In this document: piece after piece, positions 7,759 through 52,693 of the stretch
How the letters are laid out: every line of letters starts with the position of its first letter
How positions within the stretch are numbered: position 1 is the stretch's first letter
Source: an uncultured Gammaproteobacteria bacterium
GTDB taxonomy: Bacteria > Pseudomonadota > Gammaproteobacteria > CAWCPV01
Direction: 5' to 3'
NCBI GenBank assembly: GCA_963797555.1
Contig: CAWCPV010000004.1
Location: 192,001 to 256,000, forward strand
Length of the DNA: 64,000 bases
Translations under genes and position numbers: made by a program
The notes under the pieces: model-generated
The model's database searches: none
What the model saw: the letters and a program-made list of their open reading frames with translations, nothing else
What the model was told of the DNA's origin: nothing

Positions 7759-7982
7759 ATGGAAACCTCCAAGTCCGAGTTCAAGGCCAAGGCGTTGGAA
7801 TACTTCCGGTTAGTCGAAGAGACTGGCGACCCAATCGTAGTGACGGACCGGGGTGCGCCCACGATCGAGGTCCGGCCTTTCGAGGCGAGGTCAGGGATAT
7901 CTGGGCGCTGCTCAGGGGTAGTGTGCTGCGCTACGACGCACCGCTGGAGCCTGCGGGCGAGGTTTGGGACGCGCTGTCGTGA
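7759..7982 (+). pseudogene. Phd/YefM-family antitoxin, frameshifted near 7885
   Basis: METSKSEFKAKALEYFRLVEETGDPIVVTDRG continues in another frame as LRGSVLRYDAPLEPAGEVW; GTGA overlap with the toxin start. Confidence 0.8.
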
Positions 7983-8524
7983 TCGTCCTCGATACCCACG
8001 TACTCGTATGGTGGGTATCTGGCGCGGCCGAGAAGCTGAGAGCTTGTGAATAAATCTGCTGCGCGTCCCGATAGCAGCGTTGCGCGGTGCTCGCTCCTCG
8101 CCTATCTACTTGATATGTCTCGTCGCTGCGCTCCGTGCGCCTTGCTCTCGGGCCGCTCGCGACGATTTCTTCACAAGCTCTGAGCAAACCTGCGGCGGCC
8201 GCGCTCGATCAAGCGCTCGGGAAGGAGGCCTCGGTTTTCGTGTCGGCGATCTCCGCCTGGGAGATGGCCGTCCTTATTCAGAAAGGGCGCTTGGTGCTCT
8301 CGATGGATGTCGAGGAGTGGCTGTCTCACGCGGCTTCCCTGCCCGAGTTGAGGTTTCTGTTAGTCGATCGGCACACCGCGGTTCAGTCCGTCCGACTGCC
8401 GGGCGCCTTTCATTCCGACCCGGCCGACCGAATCATCGTCGCTACGGCGCGGCGCCTCAATCTTCCGCTCGTGACCGCAGACGAGAAGATGAGGAACTGC
8501 CAACACGTCAGGAGCATCTGGTAG
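7979..8524 (+). pseudogene. vapC: VapC PIN-domain toxin interrupted by a MITE
   Basis: VIVLDTHVLVWWVSG...EKL | MITE | SKPAAAALD...VSAISAWE...HSDPADRIIVATA...LVTAD; in-frame TAA at 8051 lies inside the insertion. Confidence 0.9.
8040..8180. mobile_element. MITE copy 1 (short form, 141 bp), TGA target duplication
   Basis: Terminal inverted repeats GAGCTTGTGAAtAAATC / GATTTcTTCACAAGCTC; TGA at 8037-8039 and 8181-8183. Confidence 0.9.
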
Positions 8525-8699
8525 CCGCCGCACCCGCAGTGCTGCAAAGACTTGGTCCACACCCCTTGAGCGAGATCTGGGCGACCCGCTGCTCGAAGAC
8601 CTGCGAGACAATGGAGGTCCGTCAGCTATTATCTTGGGCGGCCACCAAGTCTTCCATGCGGGTGGCACGAAAAATGGGGCACGTCCCGATCCTCGAAGA

Positions 8700-8870
8700 C
8701 GTGTTCGAGCACCCGGGCGCATGCGGCTCGGAGCCTGGGGCAGCGCGGCGAGCAGAGCCGCCTCGGCGTGGCTCAGCACCCGCCCCGGCTTGCCGAGGTA
8801 GGTGAAGCTCGCGGCCTCGACGTCCTCGATGGAACTAGCATCGACGTCCTCGATGGAACTAGCCGCTTCC
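8700..8870 (-). pseudogene. Fragment of a PBP1C-like transglycosylase with a 24-bp tandem duplication
   Basis: IEDVEAASFTYLGKP...LSHAEAALLAALPQAPSRMRP motif; TCGACGTCCTCGATGGAACTAGC repeated at 8817 and 8841. Confidence 0.65.
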
Positions 8871-8917
8871 GCTCCAGGTCGCATGTTCTATCACGTCTGC
8901 AGCAAGTGGAGCCGATC

Positions 8918-9157
8918 ATGAAGTCTGCCCGAATCATACTCGCGTCTGCCGGCATCGCGCTGTCCGGGTGCGTGGTCGTCCCCGCCGGACCTGGCCCGTA
9001 CTACGACTATGGGTACGGCGGGCCGGGCTACTTCTATGACTATGGCTACGCGTGGCCAAGCGTAGGGGTCGTCGTCGGCCCCGGCGGTCGCGGCGGCTGG
9101 GGCTGGCATGGCTGGGACGGTGGCGGACGCTGGGGCGGTCACCGATACTGGCGCTGA
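8918..9157 (+). CDS. Small Gly/Tyr/Trp-rich lipoprotein
   Basis: MKSARIILASAGIALSGC lipobox followed by low-complexity PYY/GGW repeats. Confidence 0.7.
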   Translation: MKSARIILASAGIALSGCVVVPAGPGPYYDYGYGGPGYFYDYGYAWPSVGVVVGPGGRGGWGWHGWDGGGRWGGHRYWR

Positions 9158-30900: not shown

Positions 30901-31655
30901 GCGTGCGCGCCATCGTTGCCCTGCTCCTGGCGGCGCTCCCGCAGGGCATGCCGCCCCGGGCGCTGGCCGAGGAGGCGTTGGTGACCCGCCTCGAAGTGGA
31001 CCACGTCGACATCACCAGCCAGTTCGCCGGACAGCAACTCCTGCTGTTCGGCTCGGTATCGCGCGGGTGCGACGTGATCATCAAGCTCGTTTCGCCCGAG
31101 CAGGTGGTCGCCCTGTCGCACAAGGTCAAGGTCGGGCCCGTGTGGCTGGACCGTGGCCACATGACCGTGAGAGGCACCCCCGGGCTGATGTATCTGCTCT
31201 CCTCCCAACCCGTCGGGAGTCTGCTGAGCCCGGCCGAGCGGGCGCGATACGGGCTGCGGCTCGAGGACGCGTTGGCCGGCGCGAAGGTGCACTCGACGCA
31301 CGCGGTCACGGAGGACTGGCATTCGGCCTTCCTGCGCCTCAAGGACCAGAAAGGCTACTACGTCGAGGAGGGGCGAGCGGTCACCGTGGACAAAGGCCGG
31401 CTGTTCTTCACCAACATCACCCTGCCCCCCAAGCTGCCGATGGGCGACTATGATGTCGATATTTACAGCGTGCGGAACGGGAAGGTCGTCCGTCATGACA
31501 CGAACCGGCTGGACGTACGGGAGGTACGACTGGAGCATTGGGTCGACAGTATCGCCCACGGCTACCCGTGGACGTTCGGCAGCGTCTTCACCGCCGGGGT
31601 CATGGTGCTCGGGCTCGCCCTCGGCATGATCCTCAGGCGCAAGCGCGGAGCCTAG
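30897..31655 (+). CDS. TIGR02186-family membrane protein
   Basis: VDITSQFAGQQLLLFG, C-terminal TM; coupled to the TauE gene. Confidence 0.8.
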   Translation: MSVRAIVALLLAALPQGMPPRALAEEALVTRLEVDHVDITSQFAGQQLLLFGSVSRGCDVIIKLVSPEQVVALSHKVKVGPVWLDRGHMTVRGTPGLMYLLSSQPVGSLLSPAERARYGLRLEDALAGAKVHSTHAVTEDWHSAFLRLKDQKGYYVEEGRAVTVDKGRLFFTNITLPPKLPMGDYDVDIYSVRNGKVVRHDTNRLDVREVRLEHWVDSIAHGYPWTFGSVFTAGVMVLGLALGMILRRKRGA

Positions 31656-32016
31656 CCCCGAGCGCACTCGCCGCCCCGGACGACAGCGCGCGGTATGGGC
31701 CGCAGCAGCGGGAAGCCGGAGCCGGACGGCCGCCGCGAGAGCGACCTGTCTGGGGACCCACATACCGAGCACTGTACTCCGCACACTTGGCTCTTGGGCC
31801 GCCGCCCGAGTCGGCAACTCAGCCCCCGTACTGCCGGGCGCATCTGACTCAGCGCACCGGCGCGCAACAGGCGCGAAGCACAGCGCGCGGCTCCTGCGAC
31901 CCAACGATGGAACCGGCGGGCGTCCGGGCTCGCTCCACCTTCGCTGGCTTCGACTACACTTGTCGCATTCGGGGGAATGACAACGCCGGCGCCTTGCGGA
32001 GAGCCGGCAGAGGCGC

Positions 32017-33084
32017 GTGGACCGCTTCGACCGCATCTACGAGCTGGACAAGCTGCTTCGGACCGCCCGCCGCGGGCTGACCGGGGCAGCGCTGCGAGAG
32101 CGCCTGGAGTGCTCCCGCGCCACACTCGGGCGCGTCGTCGACGACATGCGCACCTTTCTGGACGCTCCCATCGTCTACGACCGCGCCCGGAACCTTTACC
32201 GCTACGCCGGCTCCGAAACGCACACCTACGAGCTGCCCGGACTCTGGTTCAACCCCTCCGAGCTTTACGCCCTGCTCGCCGCCCAGCGCCTGCTGGAATC
32301 GGTCCAGCCGGGGCTCCTGGGACCCGTCATCGCCCCGCTCTGCCGGCGCATCGAGCGGATTCTCCAGGCCGAGCGGCTGAGCAGCGGCGAGGTCGCCCGC
32401 CGCGTACGCATCCTGTCCATCGGCACGCGCCCGCGCTCCGGCGAGCACTTCCAGGCCGTGGCCGGTGCGCTCATGGGCCGACGCCGGCTGCGCATCCGCT
32501 ATCACGGCCGCGCCCGCGACGAAGTGAGCGACCGCAGCGTCTCGCCCGAGCGCCTCGTCCACTACCGCGACAACTGGTACCTGGACGCCTGGTGCTACCG
32601 GGCGCGCGGACTGCGCACCTTCGCCCTCGACCGCATCCTGGCGGCGCGCCCGCTGAGAGCTTCTGCGCGCGAGATTCCCGACGCCGAGCTCGACGCCCAC
32701 TTCGCCACCGCCTACGGCATCTTCGCCGGAGAGCCCAGTGCAACCGCCGTGCTGCGCTTCGGCCCGGAGCGCGCCCGCTGGGTCGCCGAAGAGCGCTGGC
32801 ACCCCGACCAGCAAGGCCGGATGCTGGAAGACGGCGGCTACGAGCTGCGCCTCCCGTACGGCGACCCGCGCGAGCTGGTCATGGACATTTTGAAATACGG
32901 CCCGGACGTCGAGGTCCTCGCCCCCGAAACGTTGCGCGCCTTGGTGGCCGAGCGGCTGGAGGATGCGGCACGCCAGTACCGCGAGGCCGGTGCGCGTCCG
33001 GAGCCACAGACGCCGCCTCCGACCGGCATCCGGCCGGCCGCTGCGAAAAGCAAAGATCGGACCGTATCGTCCGACCGCCCGTAA
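32017..33084 (+). CDS. HTH-WYL-WCX transcriptional regulator (YafY/PafC-like)
   Basis: MDRFDRIY...LECSRAT HTH, YELPGLWF, RLVHYRDNWYLDAWC, RTFALDRI, WHPDQ, DILKYG. Confidence 0.93.
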   Translation: MDRFDRIYELDKLLRTARRGLTGAALRERLECSRATLGRVVDDMRTFLDAPIVYDRARNLYRYAGSETHTYELPGLWFNPSELYALLAAQRLLESVQPGLLGPVIAPLCRRIERILQAERLSSGEVARRVRILSIGTRPRSGEHFQAVAGALMGRRRLRIRYHGRARDEVSDRSVSPERLVHYRDNWYLDAWCYRARGLRTFALDRILAARPLRASAREIPDAELDAHFATAYGIFAGEPSATAVLRFGPERARWVAEERWHPDQQGRMLEDGGYELRLPYGDPRELVMDILKYGPDVEVLAPETLRALVAERLEDAARQYREAGARPEPQTPPPTGIRPAAAKSKDRTVSSDRP

Positions 33085-33233
33085 AGCTCGCAGTGAAGCC
33101 GCTCTCCGCCGCCTCAGTTTTTGCAGCAGGGGGTGTGATACAAAGAGAGATGCAGAGGCCGCGACGGGGCCGGAAGCCCTGTCGCCCGAGGCAGAACGAA
33201 CGCGGGAAACCGGGTCTGGGGGGGAACAACACT

Positions 33234-34160
33234 ATGAGGCTATCATCGCAGCTTGTCCCGCGGCCGATGGGCGGGCCGCGGCGCTTCCGCGAAGCGCCTG
33301 CCCGAGACCCGACCGAGGCGCAAGGCGCTCACGGCGACGGGACCGGCACCGCCCTCGTGGTGCATCCTCGCTGGGCGGGACTGCTGGCCGAGCGGGAGCG
33401 CCTGCGCCAGTCCCTCGCCGCGCTCCTGGAGCGGCTCACCGACCAACAGCGCCGGGCCGAGTACCTGGAGGCCGTGTTCCATTCGCGCCTCGGACGCCAT
33501 GAGCTGGGGCGCCTCGAAGCACAGGCCGGGCACGCAAGCCTGCGCGCGCAGCTCGCCGCCGCCCAGGCATTCGTCAACCGAGGCCAGCGTCTGGACCAAG
33601 AGGCCCGGTCCCAGGCCAAAGCTGCGGGGGCGGAGGAGCTGGCGCGCTGGCAGGTGCATATCGCGGCTCAGCAAAGCCGGCTCTCCGGAAGCGCCCTCTA
33701 CCTGCGCGGCCTGGTTTCGGTCGGCCCGGAGGTCGTCGCCGAGGTCAAGCGCCTCTACCGGCGCCTGTGCCTGCGCCTGCATCCGGACCTGGCCGGCGCC
33801 GACAATCCCCTGTTCGCCCGCTATTGGCCGATGCTCCAGCAAGCATACCGCTCGGCCGACTTGGAGCTGATGCGCCTGCTTGACCGACTGGTCCCGGAGG
33901 CCAGCCCGCGCCTGCCCGATGCGTGGGACCCCCTGCTCCGCTCCATCGAGGCCATGCGCTGGCAGGAACGGGAGCTCCTCGCGCGCCTCGCGGAGAACGA
34001 ATCCCGTCCGCCGCTGAGCTACGCGGCCCTGCTCGAAGACCAGGAGGAAATGGAGCGGCGGGCCGCAGTCACAGCCGCCGAGACCGCCGCCCTGAAGGAG
34101 CGCTCCGCCGCCCTGCGCGCGCAGATCGAAGCCCTGTTCGGCGGCGTCACCCTGCATTGA
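33234..34160 (+). CDS. Coiled-coil protein with central J-domain-like HPD segment (308 aa)
   Basis: EVKRLYRRLCLRLHPDL...LQQAY flanked by long heptad helices; GGGGGA Shine-Dalgarno before the ATG. Confidence 0.75.
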   Translation: MRLSSQLVPRPMGGPRRFREAPARDPTEAQGAHGDGTGTALVVHPRWAGLLAERERLRQSLAALLERLTDQQRRAEYLEAVFHSRLGRHELGRLEAQAGHASLRAQLAAAQAFVNRGQRLDQEARSQAKAAGAEELARWQVHIAAQQSRLSGSALYLRGLVSVGPEVVAEVKRLYRRLCLRLHPDLAGADNPLFARYWPMLQQAYRSADLELMRLLDRLVPEASPRLPDAWDPLLRSIEAMRWQERELLARLAENESRPPLSYAALLEDQEEMERRAAVTAAETAALKERSAALRAQIEALFGGVTLH

Positions 34161-34172
34161 GCGCCATACCCT

Positions 34173-34195
34173 GTAGGAGCGGATTCATCCGCGAA
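34173..34195. repeat. GTAG-type REP-like palindrome
   Basis: GTAGGA GCGGAT TC ATCCGC GAA. Confidence 0.55.
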
Positions 34196-34227
34196 ATCAC
34201 CTGTTGAGAGAATCTGAGAAATCCGCC

Positions 34228-34623
34228 ATGCCCGCACTGACCAAGACCCCATCATCCGCCGGCCTCATGACCACGCTGTTGGGCGGACATGGCCTCGCCC
34301 CGCCCGCCGCCCGCGACATCTTCCTGCTCGATTGCCACATCGCCGGCACCTGCTACTACGACGCGCGCGACCACCCTGAGTGCCTGGCACTCGGCATGCC
34401 GCTCCGGCTCCAGCGCCAGCCGCAGAACCCCCACGACGCCCTGGCCATCGAGGTCCATGCCGCAGGCCCCGAGCCCTTCAAGCTCGGCTATGTGCCGCGC
34501 AAGCACAACCCGGTGCTCGCCCGCCTCATGGACGCCGGCAAGGAGCTGACCGCCCGCCTCTCCCAGGTCGAGGGCGGACTGTGGGGAGACCCGCGCATGG
34601 AAATCCATTTGAGGGACTGGTGA
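34228..34623 (+). CDS. Stand-alone HIRAN-domain protein
   Basis: IAGTCYY, LQRQPQNPHDALAIEVH, KLGYVPRKHNPVLARLMDAG. Confidence 0.9.
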   Translation: MPALTKTPSSAGLMTTLLGGHGLAPPAARDIFLLDCHIAGTCYYDARDHPECLALGMPLRLQRQPQNPHDALAIEVHAAGPEPFKLGYVPRKHNPVLARLMDAGKELTARLSQVEGGLWGDPRMEIHLRDW

Positions 34624-34754
34624 TGGATCGCTTCGACAGACATGGATCGAGCACCATCGACGGCCAGACGATGGTCCACGTGCGCAGCTACGCGGTTCGG
34701 CGACCGGCACTCCCGCCCGCAGGTGAGCCGCCAGGCGCGCCGGTCGCGACGCGG

Positions 34755-35189
34755 TCAGTCCCCGAGTACCGGAATACCGAGGCCGCGTGCAGCCGTTGCG
34801 AGGCCGCTGTCGAAAACCGCGAACCTGAATGGCACCTGCGCGCCCGCCAGTCGGAGCACTGCTTCGGCGGCTGCCAAGTGCACGCTGTCGTAACCCCGCA
34901 ACTGATACTGCTCGGCCAGATCACCCGCGCGCCGAACCAGGGCTTCGTTGACCATTACGACCTCGAGCGCCGCCCAGTGCCGTTCGAACTGCCTCCGGTA
35001 CTCGGCGAGTGTGGCGTTGTCGAGGCGGTTCATCATCAGTGCCTTGGTCAATCCTGGCCGTACCTCCGCATAGGCAATCAGATGGCTGGCGACCGAACCG
35101 GCCGCGTTGAATGCGGTAGCGACGGTCTCGGAACCCGGCTCGTCCAGGTAGAGCTTCAACAACGCCGACGAGTCCAAGTAAAGGATCAC
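34755..35189 (-). CDS. vapC: VapC PIN-domain toxin, apparently intact
   Basis: VILYLDSSALLKLY, AYAEV, LRGYDSVHLAAA, FDSGL. Confidence 0.88.
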   Translation of the reverse strand: MILYLDSSALLKLYLDEPGSETVATAFNAAGSVASHLIAYAEVRPGLTKALMMNRLDNATLAEYRRQFERHWAALEVVMVNEALVRRAGDLAEQYQLRGYDSVHLAAAEAVLRLAGAQVPFRFAVFDSGLATAARGLGIPVLGD

Positions 35190-35443
35190 TTCCGATCTCG
35201 CATCACCAGGTCGGAGATGAGAGGCTCGCCCGGTGGCGTGGGTATGCGCCGCTACAGGTGCCTGCAGCTTGTCCCCGCTGCCGGGCCGGATCCACGGCTG
35301 CGCCCTGAGGCGTGCGATTGCTTCCGCCTCGGCATCTTCAGACTGCACAGCCGGCGGCGCGAGCCTTGCGATGGGCCGCCCGCCTGCACGCGCCGCAGGT
35401 ACTCCGACAGACGGTTCTTGATCTCCCGTACGGAAACTTCCAT
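35186..35443 (-). pseudogene. Phd-family antitoxin with deletion and frameshifts
   Basis: MEVSVREIKNRLSEYLRRVQAG | GRPIARL... | GEPLISDLVMRDRK split over two frames. Confidence 0.75.
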
Positions 35444-35591
35444 CGCTCATCCCTCAATGTGGCTACGCTCAAGCGATTGTAGACACATGCGCCAGCTCGG
35501 CGAGCACCACGAATGCCCGTCCGAGGCCCGCGGGCGCGTGCAGGCTTCCAGGCCTGGGCGTTCCGTGTCCACATGCGCCTGTCGCAGCAAT

Positions 35592-35623
35592 GTAGGTTGG
35601 GCATGAGCGGAGCGTTGCCCAAC
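35592..35623. repeat. GTAG-type REP-like palindrome
   Basis: GTAG GTTGGGCA...TGCCCAAC stem-loop. Confidence 0.55.
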
Positions 35624-35821
35624 GAAGCGACTACGAGTGCAGACGCTTGTCCCGACCTGCAGGTGTGGCGCTCTCGGCCCTTCCTGCGGGAGAGGGAGGA
35701 AAGGAAACACTTGCGATTGACAAGACGGGGCACGAACCTTTGCGTGTCCCGGCGTGGCGAGCATCGCCATGACCGGTTGGGCCAAGGGTAAACAGGCGGA
35801 GAAGGAACGACGGTGACGAGA

Positions 35822-36130
35822 TCAGTTACAGCCGTGGCGGCCGCGCGAAGGGCTATCGCCCCGGACTCCCATATACGCCCGGAGGAGCAAGTTGATGCGC
35901 TTCTGGCATCCGCGAGCCTGTGCCTTGAACCAGTCGAGTACGTCGGCATCCCGTCGCATCGCGCCCCCTTTCTTGGGCTGCACCGGCCGCAGGCCGCCGC
36001 GCGCGGCCGCACGCCCGAACATCTCCGACGTAACCTCCAGAATGTCGGAGAAATCAACGTCCTCGTCACACAGCGCGTCCACCCGCGCCCAGTCAGTCTG
36101 GAAGGCATTCGAAGAAGAGGACTCGTTCAT
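35822..36130 (-). pseudogene. Degenerate orphan BrnA-like antitoxin
   Basis: TDWARVDA, DADVLDWFKAQ...QKRINLLLRAY; no cognate toxin alongside. Confidence 0.7.
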
Positions 36131-36164
36131 GGCGCCTGGATTTGGCGTGGAAGCGGCTGTCACG

Positions 36165-36369
36165 CTAAAGGTCTTGCGGTGTAAGGCCGGTATGCTTGGA
36201 GATGCGTGCAAGGACCAATCTCCTCCCGATCGTGGAACGCGAACACAAAGTCCGGCCAGCCGTCCCGAGAGAGGGTCCGATGGGAGCCCGACTGCCGTTT
36301 TACCTGCCAGCCTATGCGCAGCAGGGCAGCAAGGACACGCTTGGCCTTGCAGGATCGCCATCCGCTCAC
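36165..36369 (-). pseudogene. hicA: HicA toxin, small deletion near the C-terminus
   Basis: KAKRVLAALLRIGW...QSGSHR...FHDREEIGP then LARISKHTGLTPQDL in another frame. Confidence 0.8.
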
Positions 36370-36572
36370 GTCGGAGCGAAGGAGATGCTGATGGGCTCGG
36401 GGCCGGCCTCACCGTGTTCCAACCGCTCAGCCAGTACGCGCAACGCGAGCACCTCGGCCCTTGCCATCGCCTCGTCAGGCGTTGCACCGTACGTCAAAAC
36501 GCCAGGAAGCTGGGACACCCCCGCAAGCCACCGGCCGTCCTCTTCCTGCTCGTATTCTATGGTGAAGTTCAT
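36366..36572 (-). CDS. hicB: Short HicB antitoxin
   Basis: IEYEQEEDGRWLA...LPGVLTYGATPDEA. Confidence 0.85.
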   Translation of the reverse strand: MNFTIEYEQEEDGRWLAGVSQLPGVLTYGATPDEAMARAEVLALRVLAERLEHGEAGPEPISISFAPT

Positions 36573-36674
36573 GGGGCACATCCAACGGTCCACAAGGCAC
36601 TCGACCATTGTACGCAAGGAGAGGTCCGCTGCGAACGGCGGGGGGCGGCGCCCGGTCGACGAAAAGGGGGGTGA

Positions 36675-42424
<5,750 letters not shown>

Positions 42425-42425
42425 C

Positions 42426-43961
42426 ATGCTGGCCCTCGAACTCAGGTTCCCGGCCGGACGCTATCACGCCACACCCTGGGGACGGCACGTCAACGAGGCC
42501 GATGTCGCCTGGCCTCCCGATGTCTGGCGGCTGGCCCGCGCTCTGATCGCCACCTGGCACCGGAAACTCGACTCGGACCACTATCCGAGGACCGACTTGG
42601 AGATGCTCTTAGCCACCATGGCCCGCGCCGACCCGCCGGTCTACACGCTGCCACCCGCCGTGCATGCACACACACGGCATTACATGCCCATGCGCGAGGG
42701 AAAGAGCGATAAGAATACGCTGATCTTCGACGCCTTCGCCCGCCTCGATCCCACCGCCCCACTCGTGATGGCCTGGCCCGACCTCGATCTGGATGCAGCG
42801 GCGGAGCGACTGCTCGACGCCCTGCTCGAAGCCACAGGCTACCTCGGGCGGGCGGAGAGCTGGCTGGACGCGCGCCGTGCCGAGGCTTGGGCGGGAGCAA
42901 CAGATTGTGTGCCGGGTGACGCCGCCGTGGACATTGAGACTGGCGAGGTCTTCGGCGATGTGATCACCCTGCATCTGCCCCGTGCGCCGGAAGACTATGG
43001 CGAGTTCCGCGCACGCACGCTGGAGACATCCGCGTCTCGCAACTTAAAGCCAGCAGAAGAGCGTCGGCTCGAAGCCACCTTGCCCGAGTCCTGGCTCAGT
43101 GCCATCGGTGTGGACACGGCGGATTTGCAGGCCGCTGGTTGGAGCGCGCCACCGGCCGCGCGCCGGGTGAGCTATGTCCGCCCGGCACAGGTCCTGCGAC
43201 CGATCGCCACATTGCAGCCACGTGCGCCCAGCAAGCTTCCCTCGGTCACCAGCGCCCGCCTCGCCCTCTACGGCAAACCCCTCCCCCGCATCGAGGACGC
43301 GGTGCGGGTGGGCGAATGGCTGCGGCTTGCTGTGGTGGGAAAGGCGGGCCGTCTGCTCGGCGAGGACCGGGTGCCCGCAACGCTTTCCGGCCACGATCTG
43401 CCTGCCGGTCACCGCCATGAACACGCGTTCTATCTTCCTGAGGATGCCGACGGCGATGGGTTCATCGACCACCTCATGGTTTACGCGCCCGGTGGGCTGG
43501 ACGCATCATCGCGCAGTGTGCTCGGCGCGCTCACGCGGCTCTGGACGCGCGACGGTCTGGAATGGCAAATCATCCTGGAGGGCATGGGGACGGGAGAGCA
43601 GTTCGTAGAATCGGGCCGCCTGCTGCGGAGCAGCCGGGAATGGCGTTCGGTGACGCCCTACCTCCACCCCTGGCACGTCAAGAAGCGCTTCACGGTCGAG
43701 GACCAGATTCGCCGCGAGTGCCGCGAACGCGGTCTGCCGGAGCCTGCCGGGATCGAAGGCATCGCCGAGGTCGAAGTGAGCCCCGGCCAGCGTCGCCGCG
43801 CCATCCACTTCCACCGCTTCCGCAGCAAGCACGGGCTCACGCAGCCAGACCGGCAGGGCAGCTTCTGGCGTCTTGTCTTTCCCGAGCCGATCCGGGGTCC
43901 CCTCGCCTTGGGCTTCGCCTGCCACTTCGGGCTGGGACTATTCCGGCCGGCGCCGGGATGA
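42426..43961 (+). CDS. csb2: Type I-G Cas5/Cas6 fusion (Csb2)
   Basis: FPAGRYHATPWGRHVNE, YLGRAES, HEHAFYLP, GPLALGFACHFGLGLF. Confidence 0.92.
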   Translation: MLALELRFPAGRYHATPWGRHVNEADVAWPPDVWRLARALIATWHRKLDSDHYPRTDLEMLLATMARADPPVYTLPPAVHAHTRHYMPMREGKSDKNTLIFDAFARLDPTAPLVMAWPDLDLDAAAERLLDALLEATGYLGRAESWLDARRAEAWAGATDCVPGDAAVDIETGEVFGDVITLHLPRAPEDYGEFRARTLETSASRNLKPAEERRLEATLPESWLSAIGVDTADLQAAGWSAPPAARRVSYVRPAQVLRPIATLQPRAPSKLPSVTSARLALYGKPLPRIEDAVRVGEWLRLAVVGKAGRLLGEDRVPATLSGHDLPAGHRHEHAFYLPEDADGDGFIDHLMVYAPGGLDASSRSVLGALTRLWTRDGLEWQIILEGMGTGEQFVESGRLLRSSREWRSVTPYLHPWHVKKRFTVEDQIRRECRERGLPEPAGIEGIAEVEVSPGQRRRAIHFHRFRSKHGLTQPDRQGSFWRLVFPEPIRGPLALGFACHFGLGLFRPAPG

Positions 43962-44068: not shown

Positions 44069-44350
44069 TTAGACGGACGCATCCCTGAACGCTCGCAGCA
44101 CTGCATTGATGCGCGTTTGGTAACCTGGACCTTGCGCTTTGAACCACTCCAATACGTCCGTATCGATGCGCAACGACACCGACGTTTTCGGCGGCACCGG
44201 CTTCAGCCCCCGCCGGACAATGCCTCTGACGATGTGGCTCGCATCCGCCTCTGGATGCTCGGGCGTGGGGTGGATGTCCCCTTCTTTCATCGAGCTGCAG
44301 CCGCGCCCAATCCGTCTTAGATGTTTTGGAAGAGGATTTCCGCTCCGCGC
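44069..44350 (-). CDS. brnA: BrnA-family antitoxin (frameshift near 44295; start uncertain)
   Basis: SKTDWARL | ...KTSVSLRIDTDVLEWFKAQGPGYQTRINAVLR. Confidence 0.8.
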   Translation of the reverse strand, partial: ARSGNPLPKHLRRIGRGCSSMKEGDIHPTPEHPEADASHIVRGIVRRGLKPVPPKTSVSLRIDTDVLEWFKAQGPGYQTRINAVLRAFRDASV

Positions 44351-44586
44351 TTGGTCGCTTTGCGGAAGGAGATGATGTGGATTTCATGTTCGATCTCGGT
44401 ATGTACGACGGAAACAGGAATCCCTTGAAGCGGGCCAAGGGTGACCAGGAGCTGTTCACCGTAGGCGAATCGGTCGTCTTCGAAGGTGTACGTTGGCCCC
44501 TCGAACACCTGAGCAGCGTCGATGAAGTCAAGGCCGTGGTCTTTGAGGTTCGTCCTCCGTTTCGACTCACGCCATGTGAACCGCAC
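44317..44586 (-). CDS. brnT: BrnT-family toxin
   Basis: FTWRESKRRTNLKDHGLDF...IHIISFRKAT. Confidence 0.85.
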   Translation of the reverse strand: MRFTWRESKRRTNLKDHGLDFIDAAQVFEGPTYTFEDDRFAYGEQLLVTLGPLQGIPVSVVHTEIEHEIHIISFRKATKRGAEILFQNI

Positions 44587-44645
44587 CGGAACAATGTACA
44601 TACAATCTGTAGGTGCGGCAAGAGCAGGTGAGGGTCTAAGATGTT

Positions 44646-44997: not shown

Positions 44998-46722
44998 ATG
45001 ACTGATCAGCTCGATCTGCCGCTGCCTTTTCCCGAGCTGGCGCGCGACCTGCCGCTGATGCCCGCGCGCATGGTCAACGAGTACCAGTATTGCCCGCGGC
45101 TCGCCTACCTGGAGTGGGTGCAGGGCGAGTGGGCGGACTCGTCGGATACCGTCGAAGGCCGCTACACGCACCGCCGCGTGGACAAGCCGGGCGGCGAACT
45201 GCCGCCTCCCGAGGATGCTGGAGGCCGGCGACCGCGTCCACGCACGCTCCATCACGCTGTCATCCAACCGCCTCGGGCTCATCGCGCAAGATCGACCTGG
45301 TCGAGGGCGAGGGCGGATACGGTCATGCCGGTGGACTACAAGCGCGGCAAGCGCCCGCACGTCGCCGAGGGCGCCTACGATCCGGAGCGCGTGCAGCTCT
45401 GCGTGCAGGGCATGATCCTGGAGGAGCACGGCTAGCTGCGACGAGGGCGTGCTCTACTTCGTCGGAGTCCGCGAGCGCGTACGCGTGGTCTTCGACGAAG
45501 AGCTGCGCGCGCACGACACGCAACGCCGTCGACGGCCTGCGCCTCGATCGCGGCCGGCGGACAGACTGCCGCCGCCGCTCGACGACAGCCCCAAGTGCCC
45601 GCGCTGCTCGCTGGTCGGCATCTGCCTGCCGGACGAGGTGCAATTTCTGCGCAGCGCCGAGCCGAGGCCAGCCCGCGCCCGCTCGCGGTCGGCGCGCGAC
45701 GAGGCCCTGCCGCTGTATGTGCAGGCGAGCGGTGCGCGCGTCGCGCAAGAAGGGCGAGACGCTGGAAGTCGAGGTCAGACGACAAGCCCGTAGCGACAGT
45801 GCGCCTGATGGAAGTCTCGCAGGTGGTGCTCCATGGGCAACGTCTACGTCACCACGCCCACCCTGCACGAGCTGATGCACCGCGAGATCCCGGTGAACTG
45901 GCATTAGCTACGGCGGGTGGTTCCTGGGCCATACCGTCGAGCACCGGCCACAAGAACGTCGAGATACGCACCGCCCAGTACCGCGCGAGCTTCGACGAGA
46001 CGCAGTGCCTGCACCTCGCCGGGGCCTGGTGCATCGCCAAGATCCAGAACTGCCGCACGCTGCTGCGGCGCAACTGGCGAGACGAGGACAAGCCCGACGG
46101 CTGGTAGAGTCGCTCAAGCGGGACGCCGACGAGGCGACGCGGGCCAAGAGCCTCCCGCAACTCCTCGGCATCGAGGGCGGCGCCGCGGCCCGCTACTTCG
46201 GGTCTTTCGGCGCAAGCTGATCAAGCGCGACGCCGACTCCGCAAGCTTCGCCTTCGACTTCACCCGGCGCAACCGCCGGCCGCCGACCGACCCGGTCAAC
46301 GCCATGCTCTCCTTCGCCTATGCCATCCTGGTGCGGACCTGGACCAACACGCTGTCGGCCGTAGGCTTCGACCCGTACCGTGGCTTCTACCACCAGCCCC
46401 GGTACGGTCGCCCCGCCCTCGCTCTAGACATGATGGAGCCGTTCCGGCCGCTGGTCGCGGACTCCGCCGTGCTACTCGGCCATCAACAACGGCGAAGTGC
46501 GCCCCACCGACTTCATCTCCGCCGGCCGGCAGCGTGGCGCTCGCGAGCGACGGTCGAAAGCGGTTCATCGCTACATTCGAGCGCCGCATGTCCCAGGAGG
46601 TCACGCACCCGCTATTCGGCTACAAAGTCAGTTACCGCCGGCTGTTGGAGCTGCAGGCGCGTCTGCTCGGGCGTTACCTTCTCGGGGACATCCCGGATTT
46701 CCCGAACTTCACCACGCGTTGA
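44998..46722 (+). CDS. cas4/cas1: Cas4-Cas1 fusion; about 15 or more frame breaks in this assembly
   Basis: [30 protein letters not shown] (Cas4); [48 protein letters not shown] (Cas1). Confidence 0.9.
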
Positions 46723-46881: not shown

Positions 46882-47181
46882 ATGACTGAGGTGGACGAGC
46901 ACCTGTATGTCGTGACCTACGACATCCGCGACCCGAAACGCTGGCATAGCGTGTTCACGCTGATGAAAGGCTACGGTGAATGGCTGCAGCTTTCGGTGTT
47001 CCAATGCCGCCTCACCCGACGGCACCATGCGGAGCTGCTGGCTACCCTTGACGAGATCATCCACCACGCGGAGGATCACGTTCTAATGCTCGACCTCGGG
47101 CTTGCCCAGCATGTCGTCCCGCGCGTGGTCAGCCTGGGCAAGGCATTCGAGCCCGTACGTCATGAGCCGACTATCGTGTGA
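46882..47181 (+). CDS. cas2: Cas2
   Basis: [19 protein letters not shown]. Confidence 0.95.
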
Positions 47182-47385
47182 CGCCCGCCGTGGGCTTGCG
47201 AGCGCTCCGATCATCTCCCGCAGTCCGGGGAGCGCTCGCAGCCTGGGAAGCTCTTTAACAACATGGACTTCGACATCTGGCGGTGGCCCGAATATGAGAT
47301 CTCGCACCCGTTCTTCAGCCGTCTCCTCCGAGCGCTCGCAGAGACGAGCGGAAGCTGTTCGGAGGTGCGGGCCGACAACACCGCG
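47182..47385 (+). promoter_or_regulatory. CRISPR leader
   Basis: Non-coding gap between cas2 and the first repeat; contains a TGCGAGCGCTCC/GGAGCGCTCGCA inverted repeat. Confidence 0.8.
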
Positions 47386-50300
47386 GTTATCCGCGGCAAA
47401 TTGCCGCGGCCCCATTGAAGCGCGAGTAACGGCACCCCGGAACACCCGCAACACTCGTTATCCGCGGCAAATTGCCGCGGCCCCATTGAAGCTACGTCTC
47501 CTCAAATGCGGCGCGTATGCTCGGAGTTATCCGCGGCAAATTGCCGCGGCCCCATTGAAGCCTGGCTCAGTCAGACCGATCGACTGGCAGTCCGCGACGT
47601 TATCCGCGGCAAATTGCCGCGGCCCCATTGAAGCGGCTCAGGATCGCAGCTTGTACAACGCTCGCGGCTCTCGTTATCCGCGGCAAATTGCCGCGGCCCC
47701 ATTGAAGCAACGCCTGATGGTCGCGCATTGTGTCCCGCGCGCCCGCACGGTTATCCGCGGCAAATTGCCGCGGCCCCATTGAAGCCAGCTCCAATGTACT
47801 CGATGGGCACATCCTCAAACGGTTATCCGCGGCAAATTGCCGCGGCCCCATTGAAGCGCGCAGGCCAGCCAGCCGCCGATACGACCTGCCCTATGTTATC
47901 CGCGGCAAATTGCCGCGGCCCCATTGAAGCGGTTGTCGGCCAGGATTCGACGCCAGCTGATCCGTGGTTATCCGCGGCAAATTGCCGCGGCCCCATTGAA
48001 GCGAGTACCGCTGGACTGACGGAACCGACGACATACCGCGGTTATCCGCGGCAAATTGCCGCGGCCCCATTGAAGCCGGTCTACGGCAGGATCATCGACT
48101 GCGGCTACGTCTGGTTATCCGCGGCAAATTGCCGCGGCCCCATTGAAGCATGATCCGACCTACAGGTCCCCGAGCATCGGTCACAGTTATCCGCGGCAAA
48201 TTGCCGCGGCCCCATTGAAGCGCCAGGCGTGGCCTTCACCAGCTGCAAGTTTCACGCATGCGGTTATCCGCGGCAAATTGCCGCGGCCCCATTGAAGCCG
48301 GACGTCGGGCTCATTACTCCTCCGTCGCCTCGCTCGCTGTTATCCGCGGCAAATTGCCGCGGCCCCATTGAAGCAGCGAGCTCTGCAATAGCAATAAACG
48401 ATCCGCGGGCGATCGTTATCCGCGGCAAATTGCCGCGGCCCCATTGAAGCTGATCGAGAAGGTTCTGGGCTCGGTCCAGCCGTGTAGGTTATCCGCGGCA
48501 AATTGCCGCGGCCCCATTGAAGCGTCGATCCGTTATATGACCTCGATTCCTGGACCACTTGTTATCCGCGGCAAATTGCCGCGGCCCCATTGAAGCACCA
48601 GAGGTTGTACCCGCTCATTCGGTGGCGGTCCGCGTTATCCGCGGCAAATTGCCGCGGCCCCATTGAAGCCTGCAGATCCGCTACTGCACGTCAGAGCGGC
48701 ATGCGAGTCCCGTTATCCGCGGCAAATTGCCGCGGCCCCATTGAAGCCCGTTCCGAGCGATTTCTGACCAGGAACTGAGAACTCTCGTTATCCGCGGCAA
48801 ATTGCCGCGGCCCCATTGAAGCGCGACAATCTCGTGCGATACCGTCGCGCCTCGGCGCGGTTATCCGCGGCAAATTGCCGCGGCCCCATTGAAGCACCGC
48901 GAAACTGACGGCGTTCTAACGCTGAGCGCAGTTATCCGCGGCAAATTGCCGCGGCCCCATTGAAGCGCCACGACTCTGCTCGGATGGCCTCGAGCCCATG
49001 GATCAGGTTATCCGCGGCAAATTGCCGCGGCCCCATTGAAGCGCGACTGTAGTCTGTCCATGTTGGTGCGCCTGTCTCGTTATCCGCGGCAAATTGCCGC
49101 GGCCCCATTGAAGCTGCGCGCGCGGCTGAGAGGTCGGATGCGCGGCGCGATCCTGTTATCCGCGGCAAATTGCCGCGGCCCCATTGAAGCACTCACGAGC
49201 CGTCGATCCACAGCGACTGCCGAACACCGTTATCCGCGGCAAATTGCCGCGGCCCCATTGAAGCGGGGCCGCAGGCGGTCGGAGCGATGACCGCTGGCAG
49301 CACGTTATCCGCGGCAAATTGCCGCGGCCCCATTGAAGCGCGTCACCGCGCTGCAGACGCTAGGCCTGCGGACGCAGGTTATCCGCGGCAAATTGCCGCG
49401 GCCCCATTGAAGCCGGTCATCGCCAGTCCGGCGTAGTGATGCTCGGCAGCGTTATCCGCGGCAAATTGCCGCGGCCCCATTGAAGCGGCAGCAGCAATGC
49501 CAGCATGAGCGCGTCGGCTTCGCGCGTTATCCGCGGCAAATTGCCGCGGCCCCATTGAAGCCTGCGTGCAGCAGTCTTGTCAACTCCGATGTCCCGTCGG
49601 TTATCCGCGGCAAATTGCCGCGGCCCCATTGAAGCGGCAACTCGGCAGCACCGGCAGGTCGAGCGCGGCAGGCTGTTATCCGCGGCAAATTGCCGCGGCC
49701 CCATTGAAGCAGCAGCACGGAGTCATGACGTCAGCTCTTGACATTGCGTTATCCGCGGCAAATTGCCGCGGCCCCATTGAAGCGGCACGGCTGGAACGTC
49801 CATCGCCGTGCTTTACCGAATGTTATCCGCGGCAAATTGCCGCGGCCCCATTGAAGCACCGAGCCTCTACGGCTAGCGCCACTGCGCGAGTCCGGTTATC
49901 CGCGGCAAATTGCCGCGGCCCCATTGAAGCCAGTCACGGAAAGCGATCCCGATCGCTACGCGGCGCGTTATCCGCGGCAAATTGCCGCGGCCCCATTGAA
50001 GCGCATACTCCACTTCATGCGCCTTGCCCTGGCTCGGATGGTTATCCGCGGCAAATTGCCGCGGCCCCATTGAAGCACGCCAAGACCTGCGCCCCGCTGG
50101 CGGGCAGGGATTGATGTTATCCGCGGCAAATTGCCGCGGCCCCATTGAAGCTCGCTCCGCAGTCGCTCCGGGACTCCCCATGACAGCGGTTATCCGCGGC
50201 AAATTGCCGCGGCCCCATTGAAGCGTAGCGTCCCAGGTATGGCTGCGCGCGGGCGCTCTGTTATCCGCGGCAAATTGCCGCGGCCCCATTGAAGCCAAGG

Positions 50301-52693
50301 TTCAGGACCGCGGCGCGGGCGCCGAGAGTGAGGTTATCCGCGGCAAATTGCCGCGGCCCCATTGAAGCAAATGGGGCGGCTGGCCCGGTTGCTGGAGGAG
50401 ATCGCGTTATCCGCGGCAAATTGCCGCGGCCCCATTGAAGCTTACACCGGAAACTTGACCAAAGCATTGTCGCACTAGTTATCCGCGGCAAATTGCCGCG
50501 GCCCCATTGAAGCGGCGCGCGTGCGTTCCCTCTCCCGTGCTCAGGATCATGGTTATCCGCGGCAAATTGCCGCGGCCCCATTGAAGCCCCAGCTCCGCAT
50601 AGAGGTGCGCGTCCTTCTCCTCGTTATCCGCGGCAAATTGCCGCGGCCCCATTGAAGCATGGCCGCCCGGTGGCAGTGTTGGAGCTGGGATCCCCGGTTA
50701 TCCGCGGCAAATTGCCGCGGCCCCATTGAAGCACGGCGGAGTGTAGATCGGCCAGGAGCATTGCCCGCGTTATCCGCGGCAAATTGCCGCGGCCCCATTG
50801 AAGCGATGTGCGTCCGGCTCGATTGTGGTATGTACTTTTATTTGATGTTATCCGCGGCAAATTGCCGCGGCCCCATTGAAGCAACGCCATCCGGGGGCAA
50901 GCCGAACGGCAGCGGGCTGTTATCCGCGGCAAATTGCCGCGGCCCCATTGAAGCTCCGCAGCGCCGTGGATCCGCGCTTCGGCTCGGATGCTGGTTATCC
51001 GCGGCAAATTGCCGCGGCCCCATTGAAGCCTGGCGCAACGACCGTTCGGCCGCTGCAGCGGCCATCCATGTTATCCGCGGCAAATTGCCGCGGCCCCATT
51101 GAAGCTGGGTCACGGGTGGAAAATCAGAGATGTGGTACTCCGTTATCCGCGGCAAATTGCCGCGGCCCCATTGAAGCCGGTCGGACCAATCTCAACAGTG
51201 GCAATGCCGATGAAGTTATCCGCGGCAAATTGCCGCGGCCCCATTGAAGCGGGGCCAGCGAGATCGCCTCGTTCATAGACGATCCAGTTATCCGCGGCAA
51301 ATTGCCGCGGCCCCATTGAAGCAGATCGCGCGGCGGTAGTCGCGCGGGCGCGGGACGCGTTATCCGCGGCAAATTGCCGCGGCCCCATTGAAGCTCGACC
51401 TCTGCCCGACCCTGCGCCTGCGCGGCTGCGAGGTTATCCGCGGCAAATTGCCGCGGCCCCATTGAAGCTGATCCCAATCATAAGCATCGGCTCTCCCTAT
51501 CCGCTGTTATCCGCGGCAAATTGCCGCGGCCCCATTGAAGCTGGTAAACCGCGAGAGCCTCGGGCCCGTCTTCGTTGTTATCCGCGGCAAATTGCCGCGG
51601 CCCCATTGAAGCGTCAGCACGAGCGCCCTACCGGCGCGACCCTGCCAGGTTATCCGCGGCAAATTGCCGCGGCCCCATTGAAGCCTTAGTACGCTGATGG
51701 TGGCCTCCCAGTCATCATTGTTATCCGCGGCAAATTGCCGCGGCCCCATTGAAGCATGATCGGCGCGCATCGCCGCAGCCAGCCCCGTCGCGTTATCCGC
51801 GGCAAATTGCCGCGGCCCCATTGAAGCAAGCGCTCCCGGTCGACCTTCGGCAGGGCGTCCAGGTTATCCGCGGCAAATTGCCGCGGCCCCATTGAAGCAT
51901 CAGCGTCGTAGGCGAACACGGGGGAGAGGTAGCGGTGTTATCCGCGGCAAATTGCCGCGGCCCCATTGAAGCAAGCGCTCCCGGTCGACTTTCGGCAGGG
52001 CGTCCAGGTTATCCGCGGCAAATTGCCGCGGCCCCATTGAAGCTCCAGCAACCCCACAACGAAGGCCGGCCCTGCGGTGGTTATCCGCGGCAAATTGCCG
52101 CGGCCCCATTGAAGCAAACATACGGGTGGTGGCTTGTCGCTGCCACCGCGCCGTTATCCGCGGCAAATTGCCGCGGCCCCATTGAAGCGGCCACCGCCTG
52201 TCCCCTCGTCGCTCCACGACGACGTTATCCGCGGCAAATTGCCGCGGCCCCATTGAAGCACCCTTTTTCACCAGGGCGTCGATGTCCCTCGACCTCGTTA
52301 TCCGCGGCAAATTGCCGCGGCCCCATTGAAGCTAGCACGTCGCCTGGTCCATGACCTGCAACCCGCCGTGTTATCCGCGGCAAATTGCCGCGGCCCTGAA
52401 GCATGTACACGATGGGCACGTCTTCGAGCGTCGTGCCCGTTATCCGCGGTAAATTGCCGCGGCCCCATTGAAGCGGAGGTGTTACAGACGGCTATGAACG
52501 CATCATCTTTGTTATCCGCGGCAAATTGCCGCGGCCCCATTGAAGCCCGGCACCACTTCGACTTACCGATCTCCTCCGGGTCGGTTATCCGCGGCAAATT
52601 GCCGCGGCCCCATTGAAGCAGCGGGTAATGGGCATATTGATTGGCGACCGCATCCTTGTTATCCGCGGCAAATTGCCGCGGCCCCATTGAAGC
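47386..52693 (+). CRISPR. Type I-G array: 73 repeats GTTATCCGCGGCAAATTGCCGCGGCCCCATTGAAGC (36 bp), 72 spacers of about 33-42 bp
   Basis: Manual count; palindromic stem CCGCGGCAA/TTGCCGCGG, ATTGAAGC 3' end; two variant repeats near the distal end (about 52370 and 52439). Confidence 0.98.

Follow-up and report, generated by a model that had tools for sequence, protein, structure and literature searches.

A WYL regulator, a J-domain protein and a stand-alone HIRAN protein at the head of a type I-G CRISPR-Cas island

This report concerns three adjacent genes in a stretch of 64,000 nucleotides, called here the window, from an uncultured Gammaproteobacteria bacterium (assembly GCA_963797555.1, contig CAWCPV010000004.1, positions 192,001 to 256,000). 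The genes lie at the head of a type I-G CRISPR-Cas island and encode a transcription regulator with WYL and WCX domains, a coiled-coil protein with a J domain, and a small stand-alone HIRAN protein. A preliminary description of the window had presented them as three co-oriented intact genes that might form one accessory or defence system sensing single-stranded DNA (ssDNA). The observation is confirmed and the interpretation is partly supported: the locus probably joins two modules that recur independently of each other in other genomes.

Open reading frames (ORFs) and their translations bear out the three intact genes, all on the + strand between 32017 and 34623 (Table 1), and the domain calls WYL-WCX, HPD-bearing J domain and stand-alone HIRAN hold on examination with Pfam, a family profile and fold comparison. 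The effector genes of the island announced downstream are also recovered: Cas8g1/Csx17 matches the NCBIfam model TIGR04113 at 6.4e-219, Csb1 and Csb2 match TIGR02570 and TIGR02165, and Pfam places an HD domain at the C-terminus of Cas3.

Table 1. Features of the locus and of the CRISPR-Cas island that follows it (aa, amino acids; positions are those of the window)
Feature	Position	Strand	Evidence or remark
HTH-WYL-WCX regulator, 355 aa, PafBC/DriD-like	32017..33084	+	Pfam, PADLOC, solved relatives
WYL-J intergenic gap, 149 bp, candidate control region	33085..33233	.	sequence only
Coiled-coil J-domain protein, 308 aa; J core about residues 165-219, HPD 183-185	33234..34160	+	
Hairpin-forming short element between J stop and HIRAN start	34171..34198	+	6-bp stem, 2-nt loop
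Stand-alone HIRAN protein, 131 aa from ATG, without signal peptide	34228..34623	+	Pfam, fold
PIN-domain (VapC-like) ORF	34755..35450	-	Pfam PIN 3.6e-12
Short Phd-like ORF overlapping the PIN ORF	35252-35443	-	profile positions 3-25 only, 17.3 bits, below cut-off
ORF with BrnA-antitoxin-like C-terminus, no BrnT adjoining	35822..36487	-	Pfam BrnA 1.2e-9, residues 159-206
HicA toxin ORF	36160-36369	-	Pfam HicA 1e-8
131-aa ORF upstream of the HicA ORF (region)	36160..36761	-	no Pfam or NCBIfam match
Type I-G effector genes cas3 (C-terminal HD), cas8g1/csx17, csb1/cas7g, csb2	36681..43961	+	Pfam, NCBIfam
cas4-cas1 fusion gene, broken	45004..46722	+	stops, frame changes
cas2	46882-47181		assigned by eye
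CRISPR array, about 72 units of about 73 bp	47385..52693	+	Tandem Repeats Finder

The three proteins

The regulator scores 73.6 bits against the Pfam WYL model (cut-off 21.8; 1.3e-20) and 68 bits against WCX (cut-off 23.9; 9e-19), its N-terminal HTH_11 match, at 22.4 bits, falling just below the cut-off of 25. It also matches the PADLOC model of CRISPR-associated WYL proteins, PDLC01457, at 1.3e-37. The best relatives of solved structure are PafBC (6sj9, 7.6e-27), PafC and DriD (8tp8, 3.3e-10, over residues 7-321); entries of the CapW/BrxR type match far more weakly. Domain order and the alignment to DriD assign the protein to the winged helix-turn-helix (wHTH)-WYL-WCX class that comprises PafBC, DriD, CapW and BrxR. 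DriD in Caulobacter and PafBC in mycobacteria, with the same domain order and significant sequence matches, are transcription activators that respond to ssDNA and control DNA-damage regulons, and ssDNA is bound by PafBC, DriD and CapW; by analogy with these relatives, ssDNA may be the ligand of the regulator of the window as well. Like DriD and PafBC, the regulator adjoins genes that deal with DNA ends. Unlike them, it belongs to a family that fronts cas operons, and its ssDNA binding is only predicted.

This family is a very large proteobacterial one, often heading cas operons: of 8000 proteins scored, 7294 reach E<=1e-30. A second WYL paralogue in the same genome heads a type I-C-like cas locus without HIRAN (G000:C7:421500-438500, locus L193), in which it occupies positions 7915-8922 of the minus strand, is read in three frames and is 47-72% identical. 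At that locus the cas3 and csd1/cas7 ORFs look fragmented or fused, and a PIN gene stands just upstream.

An exhaustive search at E<=1e-3 gathered 446 cluster representatives of the family to which the 308-aa protein encoded by the second gene belongs; most have 265-295 aa. All 72 relatives in the alignment carry H183, P184, D185 and P260 unchanged. Compared with solved structures, the family profile matches 86 sequences at E<=1, the top rows being J domains and the best of them reaching 3.9e-9; the match spans helix II, the HPD motif and helix III. The AlphaFold model of the full-length protein is all-helical (pLDDT 90.9), with long helices at 45-115 and 122-158, later ones at 231-257 and 270-302, and, between these, helices 165-182, 192-206 and 210-219 that surround the HPD loop; it has no separate helix I. 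The HPD motif is invariant and the family profile reaches solved J domains; on this sequence evidence we class the protein among the J-domain proteins, with no helix I that can be recognised, and the HPD segment announced in the preliminary description is borne out at the level of the family.

The alternative is that the protein is simply a structural coiled coil whose HPD segment lacks J-domain function. What speaks for it is that the single sequence scores 22.8 bits against Pfam DnaJ (PF00226, residues 169-205), below the cut-off of 27.8, that no equivalent of helix I is evident, and that searches with the whole model (Foldseek, VIA) return only generic helical bundles. Set against an invariant HPD, kept also in another phylum (see below), a profile match to solved J domains and modelled helices flanking the HPD loop, this alternative appears very improbable. 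The HPD motif is needed for the stimulation of Hsp70, and the genome encodes a DnaK-type Hsp70; HPD-dependent stimulation of DnaK by the J protein is predicted.

The third ORF starts at TTG 34204 or, more likely, at ATG 34228, and is the only HIRAN gene found in the source assembly. Its product scores 55.2 bits against Pfam PF08797 (cut-off 24.7; 6.4e-15). In Foldseek, its AlphaFold model matches the stand-alone bacterial HIRAN protein lp_0118 (PDB 3k2y) with a TM-score of 0.86 and an E-value of 3.9e-6, and the HIRAN-DNA structures of HLTF at probability 1.0; the fold is one that it has in common with lp_0118 and with the HIRAN domains of HLTF and Rad5. In the motif NP[H/Y]D, which reads NPHD in the window, N67 and D70 are invariant in 65 of 65 aligned relatives; we take these two residues to be the counterparts of the end-binding residues of HLTF. 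The HIRAN domain of HLTF binds 3'-OH DNA ends, and the same property is predicted for the protein of the window from its family. Unlike HLTF, this protein has only 131 aa and no motor or ligase domain, and it carries a conserved N-terminal peptide that HLTF lacks.

Against PADLOC, the HIRAN protein matches component B of the candidate system PDC-M03 (PDC-M03B) at 2.1e-12, over profile positions 130-223 of 250, which are its HIRAN part. Component A, PDC-M03A, has no match among the WYL, J and HIRAN proteins: the locus does not belong to PDC-M03, with which it has only the HIRAN domain of component B in common. For the J protein, PADLOC returns nothing up to E<=10 except a Cas4 row at chance level.

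Neighbours of the HIRAN and J genes in other genomes

The source genome has no relative closer than the level of the class. A search with the HIRAN protein at E<=1e-8 found it in 13 of 400 genomes sampled from the class and in 10 of 400 sampled from the phylum; the samples overlap, with one repeat, so that 22 other genomes were retained, and five of the phylum-sample genomes come from one family, f265. A close relative of the regulator of the window (phmmer 1e-62 to 4e-139) is adjacent to HIRAN in 12 of these 22 genomes, being co-directional and upstream in 11, and 2 more have a WYL match within about 3 kb. Genes of CRISPR-Cas systems lie within about 6 kb of HIRAN in 8 of the 22: type I-G twice, type I-E twice, and types I-C, I-F, II and V-A once each (Table 2). 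The distance from HIRAN to the first cas gene runs, in several loci, from an overlap to 76 nt, which suggests that the two are co-transcribed there. HIRAN is thus a recurrent cargo at the junction between WYL and cas genes.

Table 2. Proteobacterial HIRAN loci with cas genes within about 6 kb
Genome	Arrangement	Type or remark
G077	WYL-HIRAN-csb1...cas3	type I-G
G162	WYL-HIRAN-cas3-cse1-cse2	type I-E
G043	WYL-HIRAN-cas3-cse1-cse2 plus SWIM-finger ORF	type I-E
G524	WYL-HIRAN-cas3-csd1	type I-C
G150	WYL-HIRAN-cas1-cas2/3	type I-F variant
G657	WYL-HIRAN-cas12a-cas1	type V-A
G221	WYL-HIRAN, cas9 about 2 kb beyond	type II
G274 (L170 8049-8438)	HIRAN inside type I-G operon, between 541-aa ORF and cas4-cas1	no WYL nearby

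The remaining loci are of several kinds. In G501 and G715 the WYL-HIRAN locus runs into the end of the contig, in G648 and G718 it lies on a short contig and has no cas genes, and the locus of G506 has a type I restriction system and an OLD-like ATPase as neighbours. No defence genes are seen near HIRAN in six genomes. In the last three, HIRAN is the C-terminal part of a fusion with PcfJ (L156 8004-10169, L168 1692-2966 and L174 8011-10137): the protein of L156 has a Pfam PcfJ-like match, and those of L168 and L174 align to it along their length. Each fusion has a match to the WYL regulator of the window within about 3 kb, and a DDE transposase lies near L156 and L168. HIRAN genes were also found on two plasmids. 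As a side observation, a 131-aa ORF upstream of cas9 in G221 (L158 11594-11989) matches the Cas2 domain of type I-F Cas2/3 over residues 1-59 and HIRAN over residues 74-129, making it either a chimera or a fusion.

The J gene has another distribution. We sampled 301 genomes of a second phylum, that of genome G781, entered through the record of an uncultured Verrucomicrobiae metagenome-assembled genome, and 7 of them have a HIRAN match at E<=1e-10. In all seven, a gene of the J family lies directly upstream of HIRAN on the same strand, with a spacing that goes from an 11-nt overlap to a 24-nt gap. These J proteins have 272-315 aa, score between 1e-63 and 1e-72 against the hidden Markov model (HMM) of the family, and keep the LHPD motif in 7/7; their identity to the protein of the window is 22-32%, that of the HIRAN proteins 36-43%. 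An HhH-GPD glycosylase gene adjoins one of the pairs and lies 1.5 kb from another (L187 7157-7792 and L189 2911-3612).

Metagenomes provide a further, indirect view of the pair, since relatives of the J and HIRAN proteins fall on equal-sized contigs of the same source in six cases: contigs 3150, 8559, 38683, 2156, 2594 and 1505, designated here by their length. The J protein of contig 3150 is 85% identical to that of the window, and its HIRAN protein falls in a cluster whose representative is 91% identical; the corresponding figures for contig 8559 are 81% and 90%. The other identities noted are 50% for J and 56% for HIRAN on contig 2156, 35% and 46% on contig 2594, and about 34% and 48% on contig 1505, whose size falls in a crowded range. 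The six cases come from 17 J clusters examined, the HIRAN side consisting of the best 120 of 424 relatives plus some cluster members; because the HIRAN list covered 120 of 424, the unmatched J clusters are uninformative.

A tree was built from 30 HIRAN rows chosen from the examined loci, using the last 118 residues and excluding fused and over-long ORFs. It splits into two clades with a support of 98/100. The clade of 13 rows contains the HIRAN protein of the window, four HIRAN proteins whose contig equals that of a J cluster in length, the seven J-linked ones of the second phylum, and L143, on a long branch; the clade of 17 rows contains the remaining proteobacterial proteins. By this tree, the J protein is the partner of one HIRAN subfamily. 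The J and HIRAN genes make up a fixed operon of two genes, present in no fewer than two phyla.

The N-termini of the HIRAN proteins also differ. Those linked to J have a conserved N-terminal peptide and no signal sequence. In several of those linked to WYL or cas, a twin-arginine motif at the start is followed by a hydrophobic segment and an end rich in Ala, which resembles signals for twin-arginine translocation (Tat); such N-termini were noted for the HIRAN ORFs of L133, L134, L137, L139, L141, L146 and L148-L152. The twin-arginine motif occurs in 25 of the 124 proteins of a near-length HIRAN set, which includes two non-HIRAN rows.

The J family is rare in the phylum of the source genome (2 other genomes of 400 at E<=1e-12); the J protein was not found in 40 relatives of the source genome and has no match on plasmids. 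A search of the class with the J profile returned mostly the J domains of ordinary DnaJ, and of 9 extended matches only that of G398 is informative: there (L164 12967-15318), behind an orthologous WYL gene (5.5e-114) come a shortened J-like gene, with HPQ in place of HPD, and then a gene for an SprT-like metalloprotease, with no HIRAN and no cas gene at the locus. Scanning metagenomes with the J protein gave no match; a profile-based scan gave 3 loci matching the J segment alone, which were not used. Of two viral scans, one gave 4 weak loci and the other none. There is also a distant, longer J subfamily of about 365 aa, with scores around 1e-20 and mostly in Chthoniobacterales records. It was collected with one peptide pattern, whose 424 matches led to 111 confirmed and 80 kept loci, 77 of them with an ORF at HMM E<1e-10, the other three being dropped, and its neighbours are varied housekeeping genes. 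The recall of J-family loci rests on this one derived pattern and on the sampled genomes.

Two modules, one system or chance

The preliminary description had left room for the J and HIRAN genes being linked in other genomes neither to each other nor to WYL or defence loci. This is not the case, since J lies directly upstream of HIRAN throughout the second-phylum set, and HIRAN is linked to WYL and CRISPR in Proteobacteria. The reading that we consider probable is that two independent recurring modules meet in this locus, ahead of a type I-G CRISPR-Cas system, the J-HIRAN pair filling the HIRAN slot. One module would be the HTH-WYL-WCX regulator of PafBC/DriD type, whose family often heads cas operons; the other would be an operon made of the gene for a J-domain co-chaperone followed by that for a small cytoplasmic HIRAN protein. 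Elsewhere in the Proteobacteria, the place between regulator and cas genes would be held by a different HIRAN subfamily, several members of which carry export-like twin-arginine signals; in the window, the J-HIRAN operon would occupy this place instead of a signal-bearing HIRAN gene.

A mechanism can be proposed by analogy with the protein families involved. Single-stranded DNA, arising from DNA damage, phage replication or the action of Cas3, would bind the WYL domain and turn on the downstream genes. The HIRAN protein would grip free 3'-OH DNA ends, and the J protein would, through its HPD motif, bring DnaK to HIRAN or to a protein-DNA complex marked by HIRAN. DnaK might then load, release or remodel HIRAN or the marked complex.

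Several observations weigh against the joining of two modules. Among the J-HIRAN pairs of the second phylum, 0 of 7 have a cas gene or a close WYL relative nearby, one pair having a distant 521-aa WYL-WCX protein 3 kb away, and their contexts vary, including the HhH-GPD glycosylase, Mrr and ABC transporters; in the distant J subfamily, 0 of 77 loci have a HIRAN or WYL ORF within the fetched flanks. The pairing of relatives on contigs of equal size is indirect, and kinship among the five genomes of f265 inflates the counts of HIRAN loci. Export-like signals on the HIRAN proteins linked to WYL or cas fit poorly with an action at DNA ends in the cytoplasm. In the window itself, about 2 kb of antisense toxin-antitoxin (TA) genes separate HIRAN from cas3, the cas4-cas1 gene is broken, and the regions upstream of WYL, J, HIRAN and cas3 share no 11-mer, even with one mismatch allowed. 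A scan for promoters and terminators came out empty on the + strand: no promoter was detected, and the gap between WYL and J contains neither a sigma-70-like site nor a + strand terminator.

Could the three genes instead form one dedicated system, an ssDNA-sensing accessory of CRISPR or an independent defence? They are co-oriented, with no + strand terminator between them; relatives of all three are found on the equal-sized contigs 3150 and 38683 of one source; the regulator matches the CRISPR-associated model of PADLOC, and the HIRAN protein matches PDC-M03B. However, the J gene is present in 0 of the 22 proteobacterial HIRAN loci, 14 of which have WYL beside HIRAN, and the pairs of the second phylum, which lack both cas genes and a close WYL, point the same way. 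The trio is seen only in close relatives, with WYL proteins 66-89% identical, by way of those same two contigs, and the J protein is absent from the PADLOC matches. The trio as one conserved system, as first proposed, does not stand, and we judge a dedicated three-gene system to be quite unlikely.

At the other extreme, the neighbourhood might be due to chance, a J-HIRAN pair with a repair or housekeeping role having landed beside a decaying CRISPR locus headed by WYL, to which no functional tie would bind it. J-HIRAN pairs do occur without cas neighbours, which implies that the pair has a role not needing CRISPR, and two of them are next to or near a gene for the HhH-GPD repair glycosylase; the intervening TA genes, the broken cas4-cas1 gene and the lack of a shared operator in the window agree with such an accident, as does the presence of HIRAN in unrelated contexts, namely the six genomes without nearby defence genes and the two plasmids. 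However, HIRAN directly follows the same WYL family in 11 other genomes, and it immediately precedes cas genes that belong to six types. That HIRAN should have reached the same junction a second time, independently, would be a marked coincidence, and for this reason chance neighbourhood is disfavoured; we hold it to be rather unlikely.

A broader proposal can be made, although a tentative one that we regard as doubtful: small HIRAN proteins may be a widespread and unrecognised accessory of CRISPR-Cas systems that acts at free 3'-OH ends, is switched on by ssDNA-sensing WYL regulators and exists in two forms, one with a Tat-like signal and the other dependent on a dedicated J partner and DnaK. 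Such an accessory might serve a step that class 1 and class 2 systems share, such as the capture of prespacers by Cas1-Cas2 or the clearing of effectors from cut ends.

Known systems and the surroundings of the locus

The locus is built from known kinds of parts. A WYL regulator ahead of a cas operon is a known arrangement, and CRISPR-associated WYL regulators were reportedly described by Makarova and co-workers in 2014; like them, the regulator of the window stands upstream of cas3, and its paralogue heads a second cas locus. What differs from the regulator-then-cas arrangement is the HIRAN gene inserted between the two, in the window and in seven other genomes. For the other module, a comparison is offered by CbpA of E. 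coli, a J-domain co-chaperone whose modulator, CbpM, is encoded by the next gene. The J-HIRAN pair is likewise a two-gene operon of a specialised J protein with a small partner, although this analogy has limits: the HIRAN protein has no sequence relation to CbpM and has a DNA-end-binding fold, and the J domain is internal and flanked by coiled coils.

A full-text search, whose reach did not extend to the survey of CRISPR-linked genes by Shmakov et al. 2018, found no paper on an association of J with HIRAN or of WYL with HIRAN and cas, nor any paper joining HIRAN, cas3 and CRISPR; for HIRAN with DnaJ in bacteria, it returned only unrelated literature. Judged by their titles, none of the papers found for HIRAN with CRISPR-Cas and WYL is on the subject. 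Among the matches listed, the papers on HIRAN and CRISPR concern, by title or the start of the abstract, eukaryotic HLTF and Rad5 or unrelated matters, and the matching text of papers on WYL regulators does not mention HIRAN. In the matching text of PMC9503650, HIRAN and WYL domains are each paired with a third protein, not with each other. The title of PMC11237066 states that HLTF disrupts post-cleavage complexes of Cas9 and DNA, which provides an analogy only. As far as searched, the J-HIRAN and WYL-HIRAN-cas associations are undescribed in print.

The presence of WYL before cas genes is known; what no searched paper describes is a HIRAN protein of the DNA-end-binding type placed between the regulator and the cas genes, as seen in six types of CRISPR system. 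If functional, it would point to a new accessory step at DNA ends that can be put to the test, in the uptake of spacers or in the turnover of effectors. In the J-HIRAN operon, a bacterial Hsp70 co-chaperone would be devoted to a client that binds DNA ends, a rare situation from which research on chaperones would gain a defined client and research on HIRAN a simple model in bacteria. Export-like signals, carried by several HIRAN proteins, raise the question of the role of a DNA-end binder outside the cytoplasm.

Some features of the surroundings remain to be mentioned. The cas4-cas1 gene of the window is interrupted by two in-frame stops, and its reading frame shifts at least five times relative to the intact Cas4-Cas1 of locus L170, unlike cas3, csx17, csb1 and csb2, which read through; its breakage reflects either gene decay or a local assembly error. 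An Rfam scan of positions 31000-37000 gave no match. The hairpin between the J and HIRAN genes resembles a repetitive extragenic palindrome and is unique within the window. Palindromes of the form GGTCA-N5-TGACC follow the stop of the WYL gene in three loci of one family; none of this type is seen in the stretches upstream and downstream of the WYL gene of the window.

The genes between HIRAN and cas3 had been described as antisense TA debris. They are antisense TA genes indeed, and debris only in part: PIN and HicA ORFs are present, together with a partial Phd and a BrnA without BrnT. Further along the island, between csb2 and cas4-cas1, an apparently intact BrnT/BrnA pair lies antisense at 44069-44601 (- strand).

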